The position numbers were made by a program, and so were the translations under genes. The notes under the pieces are model-generated. The model was not told where the DNA came from. It saw nothing but the letters and a program-made list of their open reading frames with translations, and searched no databases. DNA of 64,000 nt from Escherichia coli O127:H6 str. E2348/69. GTDB lineage: Bacteria > Pseudomonadota > Gammaproteobacteria > Enterobacterales > Enterobacteriaceae. The DNA lies in the NCBI RefSeq assembly GCF_000026545.1, contig NC_011601.1. The stretch is one strand, 5' to 3'. Positions within the stretch are counted from its first letter, which is position 1. Every line of letters begins with the position of its first letter. Below, piece after piece: positions 2,412 to 60,507 of the stretch.

Positions 2412-3716
2412 TTGACTACGCCATTGAAAAAAATTGTGATTGTCGGCGGCGGTGCTGGTGGGCTGGAAATGGCAACACAGCTGGGGCATAAGCTGGGACG
2501 CAAGAAAAAAGCCAAAATTACGCTGGTCGATCGTAACCACAGCCACCTGTGGAAACCGCTGCTGCACGAAGTGGCGACTGGCTCGCTTGATGAAGGCGTC
2601 GATGCGTTGAGCTATCTGGCCCATGCGCGCAATCATGGTTTCCAGTTCCAGCTGGGTTCCGTAATTGATATTGATCGTGAAGCGAAAACAATCACTATTG
2701 CAGAACTGCGCGACGAGAAAGGTGAACTGCTGGTTCCGGAACGTAAAATCGCCTATGACACCCTGGTAATGGCGCTGGGTAGCACCTCTAACGATTTCAA
2801 TACACCAGGTGTCAAAGAGAACTGCATTTTCCTCGATAACCCGCACCAGGCGCGTCGCTTCCACCAGGAGATGCTGAATCTGTTCCTGAAATACTCCGCC
2901 AACCTGGGCGCGAATGGCAAAGTAAACATTGCGATTGTCGGCGGCGGCGCGACGGGTGTAGAACTCTCCGCTGAATTGCACAACGCGGTCAAGCAACTGC
3001 ACAGTTACGGTTATAAAGGTCTGACCAACGAAGCCCTGAACGTAACGCTGGTAGAAGCGGGCGAACGTATTTTGCCTGCATTGCCGCCACGTATCTCTGC
3101 TGCGGCCCATAGTGAGTTAACGAAACTTGGCGTTCGCGTGCTGACGCAAACCATGGTCACCAGTGCTGATGAAGGCGGCCTGCACACTAAAGATGGCGAA
3201 TATATTGAGGCTGATCTGATGGTGTGGGCAGCCGGGATCAAAGCGCCAGACTTCCTGAAAGATATCGGTGGTCTTGAAACCAACCGTATCAACCAGCTGG
3301 TGGTGGAACCGACGCTGCAAACCACTCGCGATCCAGACATATACGCTATTGGCGACTGCGCGTCATGCCCGCGTCCGGAAGGGGGCTTTGTTCCGCCGCG
3401 CGCTCAGGCCGCACATCAGATGGCAACCTGCGCAATGAACAACATTCTGGCGCAGATGAACGGTAAGCAGCTGAAAAATTATCAGTATAAAGATCACGGT
3501 TCGCTGGTATCGCTGTCGAACTTTTCCACAGTCGGTAGCCTGATGGGTAACCTGACGCGCGGCTCAATGATGATTGAAGGACGAATTGCGCGCTTTGTAT
3601 ACATCTCGCTGTACCGAATGCACCAGATTGCGCTGCATGGTTACTTTAAAACCGGATTAATGATGCTGGTGGGGAGTATTAACCGCGTTATCCGTCCACG
3701 TTTGAAGTTGCATTAA
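2412..3716 (+). CDS. ndh: NADH dehydrogenase II (NDH-2)
   Basis: TTG start giving (M)[26 protein letters not shown]...; FAD/NAD GxGxxG motifs; matches Ndh as recalled. Confidence 0.93.
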
Positions 3717-24018: not shown

Positions 24019-25312
24019 TTGTTTTAACCTCATGACAGATTTAAGGATGAACAAATCCCTGCCATTGCTGGCATATAAGAATGAAACCGGATATTTATTA
24101 CGGAACTGTTTTAAAGACCTGCCGGGATTTCGATATTATCCTGGTGAATAACTTTATCGACCGGGTAACAGTTACCGGGAATTTTCTGTTCGGTTGCTGC
24201 AGTCATACACTACTGCATTGTCCTGTGAACACTGACTGCAATATCAACTGGCTCTCCGGAAACAAGAAAAACTGTCAGAACAAGCACAAATGCTGAATTC
24301 ATTGTGCACATCCTTTTGGCATCAGACGTAAACGAGCCAGCATTGAAACAATGCATATTTTATTTAATAGCTCCCGTTCTTGTTTTCTCTTGTTAATGGC
24401 ATCTTCAGTAAATACTGGGTTACTGATAGTGACACCAATTTCAAAACAACCTTCAGACGTATTAACGTTTGGTAATAACGTTTTCATTATCGCGTCCTCA
24501 ACAATGAATTTTGTGATGCAGTGCCTGGTGCCTCCAGGTGACGTTAACCAGTTAACAATTAACGCCGGATACAGAGAATCCACCCATAACACTGTTTTTG
24601 GTTTTAACTGTTCCGCGTGCGCTCAGCCGCATTCACCACATCACAAAATTCACTTTAAAAAGGGCGGCAGAGCAGTCACGGAGTAAAACTGATACCGCCA
24701 AACGTCACCAGAAAATTGATAACAGAGGGCGTTGCAGCGGGGTTGTCACTTAAGCGTATGGTCAACCTGACAACCCGGTGTCCTCAACGGGGGAAGGAAT
24801 AACCCCGCCATACTTACCGCCGCGCCATTTCGCGGATTGCCACAACCGGAAGCGCACGGTCGACGAAAATTTAACGACAGGCTATCTATGAACCAGCTAC
24901 CTCGCCGTGCGCTTTCGCGTTATGGTCTGACTTTTCAGGGAAATATCCTTTCAGTAAACTGTCAGTGCCGGATGCTCACCCGTGTCCGGCGCACGCACTC
25001 CACCTCATCCGTGGAGAACTCCTTAATTACCAACCTTAGCTTCGTTGGTTAGCTATTAACGCGGGTATGTAATCATTCTGGCAATGCTTAATGTCGCTGC
25101 TTTTTCCAGATTAGTGATATCCTGCTCCAGAGCGGACAGATTTTCAGCCTGCTTAGCCCTGGCTTCATTGGCCCATTTCAGATCCTGCGCTGCATTAATT
25201 TTCTGGCGCATCCACTCATAAAGTTCATCATCGGTATAGTCTGGCGCGATGATGACGGGTTCTCGTTTCTGCATACTGATTCCTCGCGGTGCTGTTTCGC
25301 TTATCAGCCGTT

Positions 25313-33117: not shown

Positions 33118-33371
33118 CTATGAATTATTATATTGTAAAGTAATCAGGTAAGATATGTTAGACAGTGAGACTATTGCCTTACAGAATTCATTATTCTTAT
33201 GGATCGCCTTTCTGACTGATTTCATATTGGCGGGGTAACGGGAGTTAAGTAGAATGGCTGCGGGTGCTTGAGGCTATCTGTCTCAGGCATGAACACCAAA
33301 GGCAGATAGAGAAAAGCCCCAGTTAACATTACGCGTCCTGCAAGACGCTTAACATTAATCTGAGGCCAATT

Positions 33372-34460
33372 TCATGCTAGACACATGTAGGTTAGCCTCT
33401 TACGTGCCGGAAGGCAAGGAGATGTATGGGTCCACCACATATTGCAATTTTTATTCTCTTTTAAAATATATTCCACGGGCGTCATTAGTGCGAGCGCCTT
33501 GTGGGGTCTTTTGCTGTTATACAGCACCAGATATTCCGCCAGCTTCTGGTTAAATAGCGCCAGATCTTCAAAGAGTAAAATCTCATTAAATTCAATAAAC
33601 TGCTCTCTTAACGTCCGGTTAAAACGTTCACAGATAGCGTTCATTTTTGGCGTGTAGGGATAGGTCCAGAGGTGTTTGATAGCGGCTTCCTGCAGCGTTT
33701 TGTCGAAGTTTCCCAGGAACTCTTTTCCGTTATCTGTGATTATCTGGCTGATACCGACCGGGAACAACCGGGCTGCGCGGCTGAAGAAGTGATTGACGAT
33801 ATCACTGTTGAGTGACGGCACAGCCAGCGCCAGCGCGTAATTGCTGCATTCGTCGATCATGGTGATGACATAGCGACGCAGTTCGCCCATTCTGAGCTCA
33901 ATGGCGTCCATCCCAATGAGCTCACCTGTCTTTACCGGGCGGTAGTGCTTTGGCCTGCGGGGTTTGGCAGACCGCTTTTTGACAAGCAGTGCCTTCCCCC
34001 GCGATCCCAGACGCACAGGTATCATCCGCATTTTATCATGTGCGGCAGCGATCATTCTGCCGATGGTGGAAACACTCGGACAGGCCAGATAGCGCTGTTC
34101 GCACCAGGGCTTCAGGCGAACAAAAATCTGCTCTTTACCGAGGTTCGGCAGCTCTGTCCTGAGGCGTCGAATCTCTTTCAGCACATCGGGATGCCAGTGT
34201 TTTTTTCGTCGCACCAGAGGTGCCTTACTGTGCGGGATTAGCCCCTCAGGTCCTTCCTTGTTCAGTAACTGACGCCACCAGTAAAGCGTGCGGCAGGACA
34301 CGCCAAAGGCTTCAGAAGCTGCAGAAATACCGTGTTTATCCCAGAAGTGCAGAGCCTTCATTCTCATTGTTGCTATATCAGCCATCACTGAAAGCCTCAA
34401 CGCATAATCGGCCGTTTGGTAGTACTTAGGATAGCCAACCATCAGATGCTGCATTTGCAT
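33372..34460 (-). CDS. IS481-family DDE transposase (integrase-core/rve domain)
   Basis: 362 aa; N-terminal HTH (...CRTLYWWRQ...), DDE core, C-terminal ...YNSKRPHKALALMTPVEY typical of rve transposases. Confidence 0.7.
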   Translation of the reverse strand: MQMQHLMVGYPKYYQTADYALRLSVMADIATMRMKALHFWDKHGISAASEAFGVSCRTLYWWRQLLNKEGPEGLIPHSKAPLVRRKKHWHPDVLKEIRRLRTELPNLGKEQIFVRLKPWCEQRYLACPSVSTIGRMIAAAHDKMRMIPVRLGSRGKALLVKKRSAKPRRPKHYRPVKTGELIGMDAIELRMGELRRYVITMIDECSNYALALAVPSLNSDIVNHFFSRAARLFPVGISQIITDNGKEFLGNFDKTLQEAAIKHLWTYPYTPKMNAICERFNRTLREQFIEFNEILLFEDLALFNQKLAEYLVLYNSKRPHKALALMTPVEYILKENKNCNMWWTHTSPCLPARKRLTYMCLA

Positions 34461-38138: not shown

Positions 38139-39188
38139 ATGATTAATACTGTAAAAATATCCAGTTGTGAGTTAATCAACGCTGATTGCCTGGAATTTAT
38201 CCAGACCTTACCGGAAAACTCTGTCGATCTGATAGTCACAGACCCGCCATACTTTAAAGTGAAGCCCGAGGGCTGGGATAACCAGTGGGAGGGCGACGAT
38301 GATTACCTGAAATGGCTGGACCAGTGTCTGGCGCAGTTCTGGCGGGTACTGAAGCCTGCCGGAAGTCTTTACCTGTTCTGTGGTCATCGCCTGGCATCTG
38401 ACACCGAAATCATGATGCGTGAGCGCTTTAATGTGCTGAACCACATTATCTGGGCGAAGCCGTCCGGACGCTGGAACGGGTGCAATAAGGAAAGTCTGCG
38501 GGCGTATTTTCCGGCAACAGAGCGCATTCTGTTTGCAGAACATTATCAGGGACCGTATCGCCCGAAAGATGATGGCTATGTGGCACAGGGGCGCGAGCTA
38601 AAACAGCACGTCATGGCCCCGCTGATTTCTTACTTTCGTGATGCGCGTAAATCACTGGGAATAACGTCAAAACAGATAGCGGAAGCCACCGGAAAGAAAA
38701 ACATGGCTTCGCACTGGTTTGGTACCAGTCAGTGGCAGTTACCGAACGAGGGTAATTACAACAAATTGCAGGCGTTGTTTGCGCGTGTTGCGGCAGAAAA
38801 ACATCAGCGCGGGGAACTGGAAAAGCCACACCACCAGCTGGTCAGCACATACAGTGAGCTGAACCGGCAGTATACGGAACTGCTGAGTGAATATAAAAAT
38901 TTGCGGCGGTATTTCGGTGTGACGGCGCAGGTTCCGTACACCGATGTCTGGACGCATAAACCGGTGCAGTACTATCCAGGGAAACATCCGTGCGAAAAAC
39001 CGGCAGAAATGCTGCAGCAGATAATCAACGCGAGCAGTCGTCCGGGAGACCTGGTTGCAGATTTTTTTATGGGTTCAGGTTCAACGGTAAAAGCGGCGAT
39101 GGCACTGGGGCGTTGTGCGATTGGTGTTGAGCTGGAGACAGGACGTTTTGAACAGACAGTCAGGGAAGTTCAGGATTTAATCGTTTGA
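38139..39188 (+). CDS. Orphan DNA methyltransferase (N6-adenine/N4-cytosine, beta class)
   Basis: Motif IV TDPPY (LIVTDPPYF) near N-terminus and AdoMet-binding FxGSGST (FFMGSGSTV) near C-terminus; no adjacent restriction gene. Confidence 0.85.
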   Translation: MINTVKISSCELINADCLEFIQTLPENSVDLIVTDPPYFKVKPEGWDNQWEGDDDYLKWLDQCLAQFWRVLKPAGSLYLFCGHRLASDTEIMMRERFNVLNHIIWAKPSGRWNGCNKESLRAYFPATERILFAEHYQGPYRPKDDGYVAQGRELKQHVMAPLISYFRDARKSLGITSKQIAEATGKKNMASHWFGTSQWQLPNEGNYNKLQALFARVAAEKHQRGELEKPHHQLVSTYSELNRQYTELLSEYKNLRRYFGVTAQVPYTDVWTHKPVQYYPGKHPCEKPAEMLQQIINASSRPGDLVADFFMGSGSTVKAAMALGRCAIGVELETGRFEQTVREVQDLIV

Positions 39189-39237
39189 AACGGATGGGAT
39201 TGCAGAATTAATTACGCACCATTATTATTCTGCTACC

Positions 39238-39313
39238 GGCCCTTTAGCTCAGTGGTGAGAGCGAGCGACTCATAATCGCCAGGTCGCTGGTTCAAATCCA
39301 GCAAGGGCCACCA
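39238..39313 (+). tRNA. ileZ: tRNA with CAU anticodon, Ile2-like (ileZ-type of lambdoid phages)
   Basis: Hand-folded cloverleaf: acceptor GGCCCTT/AAGGGCC, D-arm GCTC..GAGC, anticodon loop CTCATAA, T-arm GCTGG TTCAAAT CCAGC, CCA end; resembles E. coli tRNA-Ile2 as recalled. Confidence 0.85.
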
Positions 39314-39320
39314 TCACATA

Positions 39321-39397
39321 CCGCCATTAGCTCATCGGCAGAGAGCGTCAGCTTTCGAAACTGGCTGTGTGGGGCCCGGGTCCCCGATGGCAATCCA
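39321..39397 (+). ncRNA. Degenerate tRNA-like element (possible pseudo-tRNA, argN-like position)
   Basis: U8A9 + D-arm GCTCATCGGCAGAGAGC and CCA end, but mismatched acceptor, 9-nt anticodon loop and atypical T-loop. Confidence 0.3.
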
Positions 39398-39410
39398 TTA
39401 TTTGCATTAT

Positions 39411-39487
39411 GCGTTGTTAGCTCAGCCGGACAGAGCAATTGCCTTCTAAGCAATCGGTCACTGGTTCGAATCCAGTACAACGCGCCA
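39411..39487 (+). tRNA. argO: tRNA-Arg (anticodon UCU)
   Basis: Cloverleaf: acceptor GCGTTGT/ACAACGC, anticodon stem ATTGC/GCAAT with loop CTTCTAA, T-arm ACTGG TTCGAAT CCAGT, CCA end. Confidence 0.9.
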
Positions 39488-39597
39488 TATTCATTCTTCC
39501 AGATTTCTTCCGGCAGAGCCTTATACTGGAATATACCTGGCTCAGGATATTGTTGAAAATATTATATGTTTGTCAAAAATAAAAGTTCTGTTAAGTA

Positions 39598-39951
39598 TTG
39601 ATTGAGTGTTTGTTATACGGTCTAATGGTTTTTTCAGTATTAAATATTTATCATTCATATGGTGTGGGTAGAGTGAATATTGATGAGGCGTCGGGGTGTT
39701 TCATCCTTAGGCAGCGTATTGATATAGTCAATGCAGCACGAGCAAAGGCCTTCAGCCGTTTGACAGTTTTGTTCTGTACTCCTGATCGTCTTTCGGGAAG
39801 AGACGTTATTCTTCTGAATAGTGATGCTATACAGAGGGTTTGCGATGAGTTCATGGTTGCTAATTCAGAATTATTTGCTCTTGTTCAGGAGTACAACAGA
39901 ATAGCCAGGACCTGTGGTATGGATGAACTTCGGATTACTCATCTGGGGTAG
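39598..39951 (+). CDS. Hypothetical protein (117 aa) at the position occupied by stx in Stx phages
   Basis: ORF directly downstream of the tRNA cluster; hydrophobic N-terminus; no recognisable family. Confidence 0.45.
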   Translation: MIECLLYGLMVFSVLNIYHSYGVGRVNIDEASGCFILRQRIDIVNAARAKAFSRLTVLFCTPDRLSGRDVILLNSDAIQRVCDEFMVANSELFALVQEYNRIARTCGMDELRITHLG

Positions 39952-40979
39952 ATACATATCTGGATTATCACCTGTTACGGTAAAAAGTGATTGCTTACTG
40001 TTTTTGTGAATGGCATTGCAGCAGCCGGATAATGTCAGTGCTGGCTGACTGTGTACTGGTGGCGGGTGTGGTGGTTGTTGCTTTCCCGTTGCTGAAAAAG
40101 AAAACGCCAGACTGTTAGCCGGAGAAATTTTTAAATACTTCACAATTCAGGCGGTTGACTGTTGTCTGGTTTGCGGGGAGTTTGTTAAAAGAAACTGGCA
40201 TGGTGAATCCACCTGTGCGGAGGGGCAATCAGCGAGTAGGTATATGGGATAATCGCGGATTCAGGTGCTGGTACTGAATTCACCGGGAGGCACCCGGCAC
40301 CATGCAATGGCACATAGCGCCACTCTCCAGCCCCTCTCCGGAGGGGCTGTTTATATTGATTTTGTCAGATGTGAGTAAACTCCTTATGGACTTTGTTGTT
40401 TTAGTCCATAAGGACATATTTGCAGAGTGCAACGGTTATTAAAGCATTCATTCAATACGTTATCTGTATTTGTAGGGCATTCCTGGCTGTTTTTGATTAA
40501 ATTCCAGAATGTTTTATTGAATGGTACTACGTTGTAAATGGTTACAGGTAGCACTTTGTTATTGAGCATGATACCTGTGTGAGTCAGTGTAAATATACTT
40601 TCAGGAGGTAAGAAAGCATCCGATTGATACCAGATTATTAATTTTATTTTACTCCATATGACTGAAAAAGATATTCCGCATGATGGCTGGATAACTGTAT
40701 CAATCACAATCCACTTCATTTAGTTTCCTTGTTTATGCCTTGCTGGTGATGTTCTGAAAAGTATAAATGATATTTTTGATTGTAAACCATAGAGCAGAAT
40801 TATTTTTCTGATGTTGTTTATTGTTTATTTAAATGCAGGGTGGTTTATATCTCGTCTTGTAGTTTATCCATGCATATCTGCTTGATGATGAGGTTTTTAT
40901 TTAAGGTATGGTTTTGTGTTTTTTCTGTATTACATGTCAGGTATTTTAAAGAATTATTTTTCAGATGGTGGAAAGAACC

Positions 40980-43085: not shown

Positions 43086-44663
43086 CCCCCAGCTAGGCTC
43101 TGTCTCTTATACACAAATCCCCACCCGGGGATTTGTGATGTCTGTCAGTCTGCTTTAGGGGGACTCTTTCCATCCGGTAGTTTCCTTCCTCCCCGGCAGC
43201 GATTTTTTGAACTTTTTCCTCACCCGTTGATCTTCTCTTATATTTCATTTTCTTCGGGTCTGTTATGGTACTTTCTGATTGTTATTCATGGGCTAACGAG
43301 CAGTTTGGACATGCCCGTCTCGGTGATCCGCGTCGTACACGACGCCTTGTGTCACTGGCCTCTTCTCTCGCTCAGCATGCAGGTCTTTCTATTGTGAAAT
43401 CATCCCAGTCCACTGCTCAGGTTGAAGGTGCGTACCGCCTGATACGTAACCCGTCTGTGTCCCCGCAAGCCATTGCCGAAGCCGGATTTACCGCCACTGT
43501 AAGGGCATGTGAGGCTCATCCGCTGCTCCTCGCGCTGGAAGACACCACCACCATTAACTTCAGTCACAGTACGGCATCTGATGACCTGGGGAATACCACC
43601 ACTAACCCGAAGACGCGCGGGCTGCTGGCTCACTCTGTCCTGATGTACGCCCCCGACAGCGCCCTGCCAGTCGGTCTTATCGAACAGCAGCGCTGGAGTC
43701 GTGCCACGGACACCTACGGTGTTAAGCACCAGCGAAAAGAACGTCCCTATGAAGAAAAAGAAAGTTACCGCTGGCAGCAGGCTTCGGAGCGCATGGCCGA
43801 ACGGCTGGGGGAGATACAGAAACGGGTAATCACTGTCTGTGACCGGGAAGCGGATATCTGGCATTACCTGCATTATAAAGTCAGCCACGGGCAGCGCTTC
43901 GTGGTGCGTGCAGCACAGAATCGCCGGCTGGAAGAAGCACCCGGCAAGCTCTTCGAACTGCCGGAAGTCCTGGCAACCGCGGGAAGCCACACGCTGAATG
44001 TGATGCAAAAAGGCGGGCGGGCAGCCCGCCAGGCCCGGATGTTCATCAGTTACAGCGAAGTCAGCATAAAAAATCCCGACAACAGCGGCCAGGCGCTCCC
44101 GCTCACGTATGTCTGTTGCCGGGAGCAGGCAGAGGACGGCGCCTGCTGGCATCTGCTGACGTCAGAAAAAGTGGCGAGTGCCGCCGATGCGCGACGTATC
44201 GTCAGCCATTACGAGCGACGCTGGCTGATAGAGGAATACCACAAGGCGTGGAAAAGTGGTGGTACATGTGTGGAATCGCTGCGAATGCAGACCCGGGATA
44301 ACCTCGAGCGCATGGTGGTTATCAAGGCGTTTATCGCGGTGCGGGTGCTGGGCCTGCGGCAGGGCGGTATCAGTGAAGAAACACAAAATGACAGCTGTGA
44401 GAAAATACTGACGCCGACAGAGTGGAAACTGCTGTGGGTTAAGCTGGAAGGAAAACCGCTTCCGTCACAGATGCCGACACTGAAATGGGCCTGTCTGAAA
44501 CTGGCGAAACTGGGGCGATGGCATGACAGCAAACGCACCGGTCGCCCCGGTTGGGTAGTCATGTGGGATGGCTGGTTCAGACTTCAGGATATGGTTGAGG
44601 GTTACCTGGTGATGAAGTCTCTTGATCAGGAGATCTGATCAAGAGACAGAGCTAGGCTGGGGG
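43086..44663 (+). mobile_element. IS4-family (IS50-like) insertion sequence
   Basis: Imperfect terminal inverted repeats CCCCCAGCTAGGCTCTGTCTCTT (43086) and revcomp of aagagacagagctaggctggggg (44639-44663), containing the CTGTCTCTT motif of IS50 ends; Tn5-Tnp-like transposase inside. Confidence 0.8.
43265..44638 (+). CDS. IS50-like DDE transposase
   Basis: 457 aa, colinear with Tn5 transposase as recalled (LGDPRRTRRLV..., ...YERRWLIEEYHKAWKSG..., ...NLERMV...). Confidence 0.85.
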   Translation: MVLSDCYSWANEQFGHARLGDPRRTRRLVSLASSLAQHAGLSIVKSSQSTAQVEGAYRLIRNPSVSPQAIAEAGFTATVRACEAHPLLLALEDTTTINFSHSTASDDLGNTTTNPKTRGLLAHSVLMYAPDSALPVGLIEQQRWSRATDTYGVKHQRKERPYEEKESYRWQQASERMAERLGEIQKRVITVCDREADIWHYLHYKVSHGQRFVVRAAQNRRLEEAPGKLFELPEVLATAGSHTLNVMQKGGRAARQARMFISYSEVSIKNPDNSGQALPLTYVCCREQAEDGACWHLLTSEKVASAADARRIVSHYERRWLIEEYHKAWKSGGTCVESLRMQTRDNLERMVVIKAFIAVRVLGLRQGGISEETQNDSCEKILTPTEWKLLWVKLEGKPLPSQMPTLKWACLKLAKLGRWHDSKRTGRPGWVVMWDGWFRLQDMVEGYLVMKSLDQEI

Positions 44664-59952: not shown

Positions 59953-60507
59953 CGGACCATAACAATTTATAATCTGCTGGCCGGAACTAATGAATTTATT
60001 GGTGAAGGTGACGCATATATTCCGCCTCATACAGGTCTGCCAGCAAACAGTACCGATATTGCACCACCAGATATTCCTGCTGGCTTTGTGGCTGTTTTCA
60101 ACAGTGATGAGGCATCGTGGCATCTCGTTGAAGACCATCGGGGTAAAACGGTTTATGACGTAGCGTCAGGGGACGAGTTATTTATTTCTGAACTCGGTCC
60201 GTTACCGGAAAATGTTACCTGGTTATCGCCGGAAGGGGAGTTTCAGAAGTGGAACGGCACAGCCTGGGTGAAAGATGCAGAAGCAGAAAAACTGTTCCGG
60301 ATCCGGGAGGCGGAAGAAACAAAAAACAACCTGATGCAGGTAGCCAGTGAGCATATTGCGCCACTTCAGGATGCGGTAGATCTGGAAATCGCAACGGAGG
60401 AAGAAAACTCGTTGCTGGAAGCCTGGAAGAAGTATCGGGTGTTGCTGAACCGTGTTGATACATCAACTGCACCTGATATTGAGTGGCCGACTTCACCTGC
60501 AGAGTAA
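59953..60507 (+). pseudogene. tfa: Tail fibre assembly protein (tfa) lacking its first codons and start
   Basis: [87 protein letters not shown]... colinear with lambda Tfa from about residue 10; homology ends abruptly at the IS2 remnant. Confidence 0.8.

Follow-up and report, generated by a model that had tools for sequence, protein, structure and literature searches.

Between the tRNA-Ile and the tRNA-Arg gene of a lambdoid prophage in Escherichia coli E2348/69 lies a 77-nt element that is very probably a non-functional pseudogene of argN, the tRNA-Arg(UCG) of the lambdoid ileZ-argN-argO cluster. The element reads as an argN homologue because it occupies the slot between ileZ and argO and because it aligns with argN over its full length without gaps. 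That it no longer functions is a reading of sequence alone: hallmarks of tRNAs have been lost, detection scores are below threshold and constraint appears relaxed.

We refer to the whole stretch of DNA that was analysed, 64,000 nucleotides, as the window. The region is 100% identical to the E2348/69 chromosome. In the RefSeq annotation the upstream part has, in this order, a DUF968 protein, RusA, a DUF1133 protein, a small ORF and a DNA methyltransferase, and the downstream part has tRNA-Ile, a gap without any feature, tRNA-Arg, a DUF3927 peptide, IraM, a SASA-family esterase and an IS4-like element. The cluster is located downstream of a Q-like gene and the DNA methylase, within the late transcription unit. 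Coordinates are given in Table 1.

Table 1. Features of the tRNA cluster and other features located in the window.
Feature	Position	Strand	Sequence or evidence
DicF match	24662-24713	-	Rfam
sok antitoxin RNA match	33262-33428	+	Rfam
DNA methyltransferase	38139-39188		RefSeq
Putative sigma-70-like promoter	39200-39228	+	TTGCAG 39200-39205, 17-nt spacer, TATTAT 39223-39228; 9 nt before ileZ
ileZ-type tRNA, anticodon CAT	39238-39313	+	ARAGORN; Rfam 72.5 bits; RefSeq tRNA-Ile
Plastid-ycf2 (RF04354) match	39238-39311	-	Rfam 36.3 bits; threshold 65.7
Spacer 1, between ileZ and relic	39314-39320	+	TCACATA
Degenerate argN, probable pseudogene of tRNA-Arg(TCG)	39321-39397	+	CCGCCATTAGCTCATCGGCAGAGAGCGTCAGCTTTCGAAACTGGCTGTGTGGGGCCCGGGTCCCCGATGGCAATCCA; CCA 39395-39397; Rfam, ARAGORN, alignment to PA12/933W
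Spacer 2, between relic and argO	39398-39410	+	TTATTTGCATTAT
argO-type tRNA-Arg, anticodon TCT, reads AGA	39411-39487	+	ARAGORN; Rfam 70.1 bits; RefSeq tRNA-Arg
Sequence type after argO	39488-39560	+	TATTCATTCTTCCAGATTTCTTCCGGCAGAGCC...
Next terminator-like site	39787-39805	+
STnc100 sRNA homologue	40169-40358	+	Rfam 123.6 bits; ~680 nt downstream of argO
ISEc13 transposase, IS4-like	from ~43265	+	RefSeq
STnc490 match	44643-44766	+	Rfam
IS009 match	60269-60467	+	Rfam

The earlier note had described a 77-nt segment that lies between two canonical tRNAs and ends in CCA, and this is exact: the element begins 7 nt 3' of the tRNA(CAT) and ends 13 nt 5' of the tRNA-Arg(TCT), both of which are called by ARAGORN. 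When the element is threaded onto the cloverleaf, the defects that had been noted are found again. The D-arm, described as good, is unbroken (GCTC/GAGC). The acceptor stem has five of its seven pairs, and the mismatched end consists of the two outermost ones, C1·A72 and C2·A71. In the anticodon stem the innermost pair, C31·A39, is mismatched, and this opens the loop to what is formally the 9 nt that had been counted. Within it the core of the 7-nt loop, TTTCGAA, retains U33, the anticodon TCG and A37. Five pairs, a G·U among them, form the T-stem. In place of TTCRAnn the T-loop has CCCGGGT, so that of T54, T55, C56 and A58 only C56 is retained. The D-loop is ATCGGCAGA as compared with ATCGGGACA in intact alleles, by which either G19 or A20 is lost. 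At the 3' end there is a discriminator T followed by the encoded CCA, as in argN.

With its three broken pairs the element has a cloverleaf energy of -16.9 kcal/mol, compared with -28.3 to -31.3 kcal/mol for intact alleles. The minimum free energy fold of the isolated 77-mer is a four-way, tRNA-like junction. Its stability does not exceed that of shuffled sequences, neither with short flanks (z = -0.09) nor for the 77-mer alone (z = +0.10). The shuffling z is non-significant for every allele, including intact argN (z = -1.06), and the folding z-scores are therefore uninformative on function here.

The Rfam tRNA model (RF00005) aligns to the element end to end (model positions 1-71) with 22.2 bits and E=0.022 in a search of 321 nt. 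This is below the gathering score of 29 bits, and the element is absent from a scan at the gathering threshold. Intact argN alleles reach 55-58 bits, about 33 above the element; the scores of the flanking tRNAs are found in Table 1. On the whole window ARAGORN calls just the two flanking tRNAs, and in RefSeq/PGAP no feature covers the element. The earlier note had allowed that prediction tools might return a canonical tRNA with a standard 7-nt anticodon loop, and no such call was made on the window allele. Its suggestion of a decaying tRNA gene is strongly supported by these scores, by the loss of near-universal positions, and by the argN homology and the continuing decay in related prophages that are described below.

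The homology to argN is seen in Stx-converting phages, which are about 92% identical to the 321-nt cluster region. In the same slot the Stx2 phage PA12 has three annotated tRNAs, which ARAGORN identifies as Met(cat), Arg(tcg) and Arg(tct). The GenBank record of 933W (AF125520) lists ileZ (AUA), argN ('CGH; CGG?') and argO ('AGA; AGG?'), with a terminator after the three tRNAs and in front of stxA2. Before them it places 'pT; putative tRNA promoter', which is positionally equivalent to the site at 39200-39228 in the window, and we infer that the latter would serve as promoter of the cluster. Its -35 element matches the consensus at three of six positions and is therefore missed by a consensus scan. 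In most sampled clusters TATTAT keeps this distance from ileZ and has a TTG-type -35 (TTGCAG/TTGCGG or TTGATT) on its 5' side, and the sequence farther upstream differs among them.

In a three-way alignment ileZ is identical and argO differs at one base, and the middle element differs from that of PA12/933W at 13 of 77. The remaining 64 positions are identical and there are no indels. This gap-free homology rules out a chance resemblance to a tRNA: judging from the alignment, the element is homologous, base for base, to real argN genes. A coding origin can also be set aside, as the overlapping ORFs are short (62 aa antisense and 26 aa sense) and run through the tRNA genes, and they are thus spurious.

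Transitions account for 11 of the 13 substitutions. Two changes are found in the D-loop, of which one is G19C. Pairs are broken by G39A (31-39) and by G71A and G72A (two acceptor pairs), while C27T and C49T leave wobble pairs; C32T and a C to T change in the variable loop are found in addition. In the T-arm T54C, T55C and A58G alter the loop, and T63C turns a G·U into a G-C pair. Some of these changes (C27T, the variable-loop change, T63C and even A58G) also occur in otherwise functional-looking alleles. Confined to the lineage of the window are G39A, C49T, T54C, T55C and G71A/G72A as well as both changes in the D-loop. The anticodon TCG is at the homologous position, within TTTCGAA in the window and CTTCGAA in intact alleles. 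Among the alleles sampled, the closest one that still looks intact has 11 differences to the element.

With the 97 nt from ileZ to argO as query, blastn finds 251 phage records at 85.6-86.6% identity, and argN or tRNA-Arg is annotated in 10 of the 15 listed. The window-type allele is absent from the INPHARED phage records, where identity does not exceed 86.6%. A copy with 90% identity or more to this 97-nt query is present in 88 records of complete E. coli genomes. Among the matches listed, both records at this level of identity have no annotated feature there, and copies at 80-90% identity are annotated as tRNA-Arg, bar one partial match.

In general there is a close resemblance between the element and the argN of 933W, Stx and other lambdoid phages: they share the slot, the length of 77 nt, the TCG anticodon, the discriminator T with CCA and a pT-like promoter, and the identity to argN alleles of deposited phage records is 80-87%. 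Unlike argN of 933W and PA12, the element carries the 13 substitutions, falls below the thresholds of tRNA detection and has neither an stx operon nor a terminator downstream of argO (RefSeq annotation and sequence of the window). With tRNA pseudogenes of bacteria and phages it shares homology to a tRNA, the loss of invariant positions and stem pairs, and a substitution rate above that of the neighbouring functional tRNAs. In contrast to these it is of full length and is flanked on both sides by intact, strongly conserved tRNAs of its own operon, and instead of being a truncated integration-site remnant it circulates as an allele among prophages.

Not all features of the element speak for a pseudogene. 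It still folds into a four-way, tRNA-like structure and has kept U33, TCG, A37 and the CCA end. It could accordingly be asked whether it is a still working, unconventional tRNA-Arg(UCG), which tolerates the mismatches and the odd T-loop. The retained TTTCGAA core, D-stem, T-stem, length and CCA agree with this, as does the cloverleaf-like fold of the isolated 77-mer, and a C1·A72 mismatch is natural in the E. coli initiator tRNA. Further, ARAGORN accepts a closely related sister allele, found in two loci (L050 and L055), as tRNA-Arg(tcg). However, T54, T55, A58 and one of G19 and A20 are all replaced. In practically all elongator tRNAs the elbow is built from these positions, and A20 also serves ArgRS as an identity element in E. 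coli. Two consecutive mismatches at the end of the acceptor stem together with the one at 31-39, a score some 33 bits under that of intact alleles, the silence of PGAP on the element and the apparent lack of purifying selection in its family make a working tRNA highly improbable, and a pseudogene remains the preferred reading.

We studied the argN slot in a larger sample of clusters, obtained by scanning IMG/VR with an exact pattern consisting of the ileZ 3' end, 85-115 nt of any sequence and the 5' part of argO. The scan gave at least 120 loci, and those listed, together with the window, PA12 and mEp460, make up 123 clusters with 55 distinct middle sequences. The loci in IMG/VR do not represent independent samples, which makes the family frequencies rough and the proportions only indicative. 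Five groups can be distinguished, see Table 2.

Table 2. Groups of middle elements in 123 ileZ-argO clusters; counts refer to loci among the matches listed.
Group	Loci	State of the middle element	Rfam tRNA score	Called by ARAGORN
I (intact)	62	0-1 broken pairs in all but one allele	55-58 bits in six representatives, 44.4 in a seventh	62 of 62
A	23	A6·A67 and A52·C62 mismatches, A58G	~43 bits	23 of 23
W (window type)	10	3-4 broken pairs; T-loop CTCGGGT or CCCGGGT	22-23 bits or no hit	2 loci
M (mEp460 type)	23	anticodon arm rewritten	no hit	never
D	5	17-nt deletion in the anticodon arm	no hit	never

The T-loops of group I are mostly TTCGAGT, TTCAAGT or TTCGGGT, and two single-locus variants are of a GTCG type. 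The exceptional allele of this group (L026) is frameshifted with six broken pairs and is called as tRNA-???(cg). In about 30% of the sampled clusters, among the matches listed, the middle element is rejected by ARAGORN.

Groups A, W, M and D have different haplotypes of the spacer before argO and also differ in their D-loops; we therefore read them as independent decays of argN. No structure is common to the decayed families: W and A have a broken acceptor stem, A and D a broken T-stem. Since mEp460, deposited as a phage genome, has the form of group M, decay is not simply a by-product of prophage degeneration.

The relic of mEp460 (mEp460_ev081, LR597641) resembles the window element in that it is a decayed argN in the same slot, unannotated and undetected as a tRNA. 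It differs in belonging to an independent lineage, in its length of 80 nt and in its perfect 7-bp acceptor stem; a 7-bp hairpin with a triloop takes the place of the anticodon arm, and D-arm, T-arm-like hairpin and CCA are present. In the mEp460_ev081 locus (L002) it lies at ~3124-3203, and the type is found in 22 other loci of IMG/VR; expansions of a G-run are seen in the T-loop in some copies of this type. Relics of group D are found in L005, L006, L039, L094 and L095, and in these the spacer after ileZ is shortened.

Taken over all clusters, and as far as these alignments tell, ileZ (AUA) and argO (AGA) are almost invariant and argN (CGA/CGG) varies and has repeatedly been inactivated, the isolated phage mEp460 being one case. 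The ileZ-type tRNA of the window, a lysidine-type Ile2 that reads AUA, is 100% identical to the copy in PA12, and the same sequence is found in 101 of 119 sampled copies among the matches listed. The argO gene is identical in all 10 loci with a window-type relic, again among the matches listed.

Within the window's own family the difference between the relic and its neighbours is clear. Among the matches listed, the 10 loci of group W have 8 variable sites in the 97 nt of relic and spacers, and none in 95 nt of ileZ and argO (Fisher p=0.007), where the latter are the positions of these two genes that were left free by the search pattern. The changes within the family include G18A, C25T, C27T, A29T and G42A (both of which break a stem pair), T55C and a CCA end that has turned into CTA. 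In spacer 2 the window has one substitution relative to the PA12 type and also relative to the other members of the family. On this comparison, the family is evolving without purifying selection of the tRNA type, as would unconstrained sequence between constrained genes.

Further, among the matches listed the W allele is found with three types of upstream and three types of downstream flank. Some loci with an intact argN are 96% identical to the upstream flank of the window and 82-85% identical in the middle. A faster divergence of the element than of its flanks was considered as an explanation and set aside, since the W allele occurs on several flank types; this diversity is taken as mosaic recombination, with crossovers probably in the invariant ileZ and argO.

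The relic has persisted in its own family to a divergence of 1-6% and has moved between backgrounds, which would also agree with a transcript that has been co-opted as a regulatory or decoy RNA, be it a bait for anticodon nucleases or tRNA-binding factors, an sRNA or a sponge. The region is in addition rich in prophage small RNAs, as STnc100 is encoded downstream in the window (Table 1) and AgvB or AsxR anti-sRNAs flank STnc100 in related loci, although neither reaches the gathering threshold in the window. However, an Rfam scan at E up to 10 gives only noise from non-tRNA families over the element (YrlA, 13.9 bits), the conservation does not go beyond that due to argN homology, independent lineages decay to unrelated sequences, and variation within the family is spread over all parts of the element. 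We consider a co-opted RNA extremely improbable.

The earlier note had also proposed a structured RNA or processing signal retained in the cluster, and here the outcome is divided: excess stability and a structure common to the decayed lineages were not found, but the element is never deleted in the sample. In the 2.9 million viral contigs of IMG/VR there is no match with ileZ and argO spaced by 5-35, 36-66 or 67-84 nt, compared with more than 120 at 85-115 nt, about 30% of which have a middle element that ARAGORN does not call. That no sampled cluster has lost the element could hint at constraint on its presence, which would speak against a plain pseudogene. The relic might thus be kept as a tRNA-shaped spacer, or as a handle for RNase P or RNase E in the maturation of the ileZ 3' end and the argO 5' end.

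The absence of short spacings can also be expected without any such role, as a deletion within about 100 nt that spares both selected neighbours is a rare event, and families M and D do show smaller indels. In favour of such a role, conservation in most decayed families is highest in the 5' 18 nt, the 3' strand of the acceptor stem and CCA, and the mEp460-type relic folds as a cloverleaf without an anticodon loop, with its acceptor stem and CCA complete. In the window allele, in contrast, the two acceptor pairs beside the would-be RNase P site are broken, and the new changes within family W break more pairs and the CCA. In the W lineage the stems of the acceptor and the T-arm have changed at about the rate of other positions (~4 substitutions in 24 stem positions as compared with ~9 in 53 others) and show no depletion. 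Group D has a compensatory change in the acceptor stem at 7-66, from T-A to C-G, which would speak for a retained role; this change may pre-date inactivation, as the intermediate T·G is found in an intact allele.

Together with the z-scores and the differing structures of the decayed families, this leaves a retained spacer or handle very unlikely. The more specific claim, that the tricistronic precursor requires an entry site for RNase P or RNase E or a spacer and that lambdoid phages keep a tRNA-shaped relic of about 77 nt for this reason, is given no better chance. If it were true, the need of the precursor for the relic would explain that the tRNA function is lost in several lineages and the element in none of those sampled.

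Returning to a pseudogene of argN, its history may have been as follows. Selection on argN would have been relaxed in the lineage leading to this allele. Point substitutions, mostly transitions, would then have accumulated, and the T-loop, one of G19 and A20, both terminal acceptor pairs and the pair that closes the anticodon stem would have been lost to them. In its decayed state the allele was carried between prophage backgrounds, probably via recombination through the invariant flanking tRNA genes. Today the relic is probably co-transcribed with ileZ and argO, both from the upstream promoter and by late read-through, and RNase P, by cutting at the 5' end of argO, would set it free together with the trimming of the trailer of ileZ. 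In bacteria, tRNA quality control degrades defective tRNA-like fragments rather than maturing and charging them, and the released relic would likewise be degraded instead of being matured or aminoacylated.

Why argN should be the dispensable member of the cluster can be discussed in terms of codon use. AUA and AGA/AGG are the rarest codons of E. coli and are served by scarce tRNAs. CGA and CGG, on the other hand, are already read by the tRNA-Arg(ICG) and tRNA-Arg(CCG) of E. coli, and a phage tRNA-Arg(UCG) should therefore add less. In a crude count over long ORFs near the clusters, the share of CGA and CGG among Arg codons is 0.25-0.29 in all families and shows no difference between them. The low added value of tRNA-Arg(UCG) as the reason for the decay is thus an argument and not a result. 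The repeated loss of argN suggests that the supply of tRNA-Arg(UCG) adds little in E. coli, and the pattern fits what is known about codon use and tRNA supply in this species.

The ileZ-argN-argO cluster of Stx phages has long been known and annotated, and tRNA pseudogenes are a familiar category. Papers on Stx phages describe three tRNAs (two Arg and one 'Met') near stx2, in the order Q, methylase, tRNAs, stx. In the literature and annotation on ileZ, argN and argO and on the tRNAs and rare codons of 933W, nothing was found that describes this decayed allele. The element is a decayed allele of a known cluster, an ordinary tRNA pseudogene and not a new kind of element. In E2348/69 an annotation as argN pseudogene is appropriate for the segment, and it would apply equally to about 88 further records of complete E. 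coli genomes, in which the copies among the matches listed have none. Further, it calls for caution, as the 'three tRNAs' of such prophages cannot be counted by synteny alone.

A few observations concern the surroundings of the element. One locus with a W-type relic (L050) has an additional tRNA at 3548-3619 (-), with 59.9 bits and about 1.2 kb from the cluster. Position 37 of argO is G in PA12 and A in the window, and some argO alleles have compensatory changes in the T-stem, from CACTGG/CCAGT to CAGTGG/CCACT. In 10 IMG/VR loci argO is cut off just 3' of the anticodon loop and continues into unrelated sequence. Most sampled clusters, those of Stx phages included, have a terminator consisting of a GC-rich hairpin and a T-run directly after argO; the sequence type that follows argO in the window is without it, and the next terminator-like site on the strand is the one given in Table 1.

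The Plastid-ycf2 match antisense to ileZ is found at the same place in all related loci. At about 36 bits it is well below its threshold, and it seems to arise from the model, which is similar to an antisense tRNA, and not from biology. In the late region of the prophage, the ISEc13 transposase starts a short way beyond the SASA-family (NanS-p-like) esterase. The matches to DicF, sok, STnc490 and IS009 elsewhere in the window fit the presence of at least one lambdoid prophage with a module of the hok/sok type.
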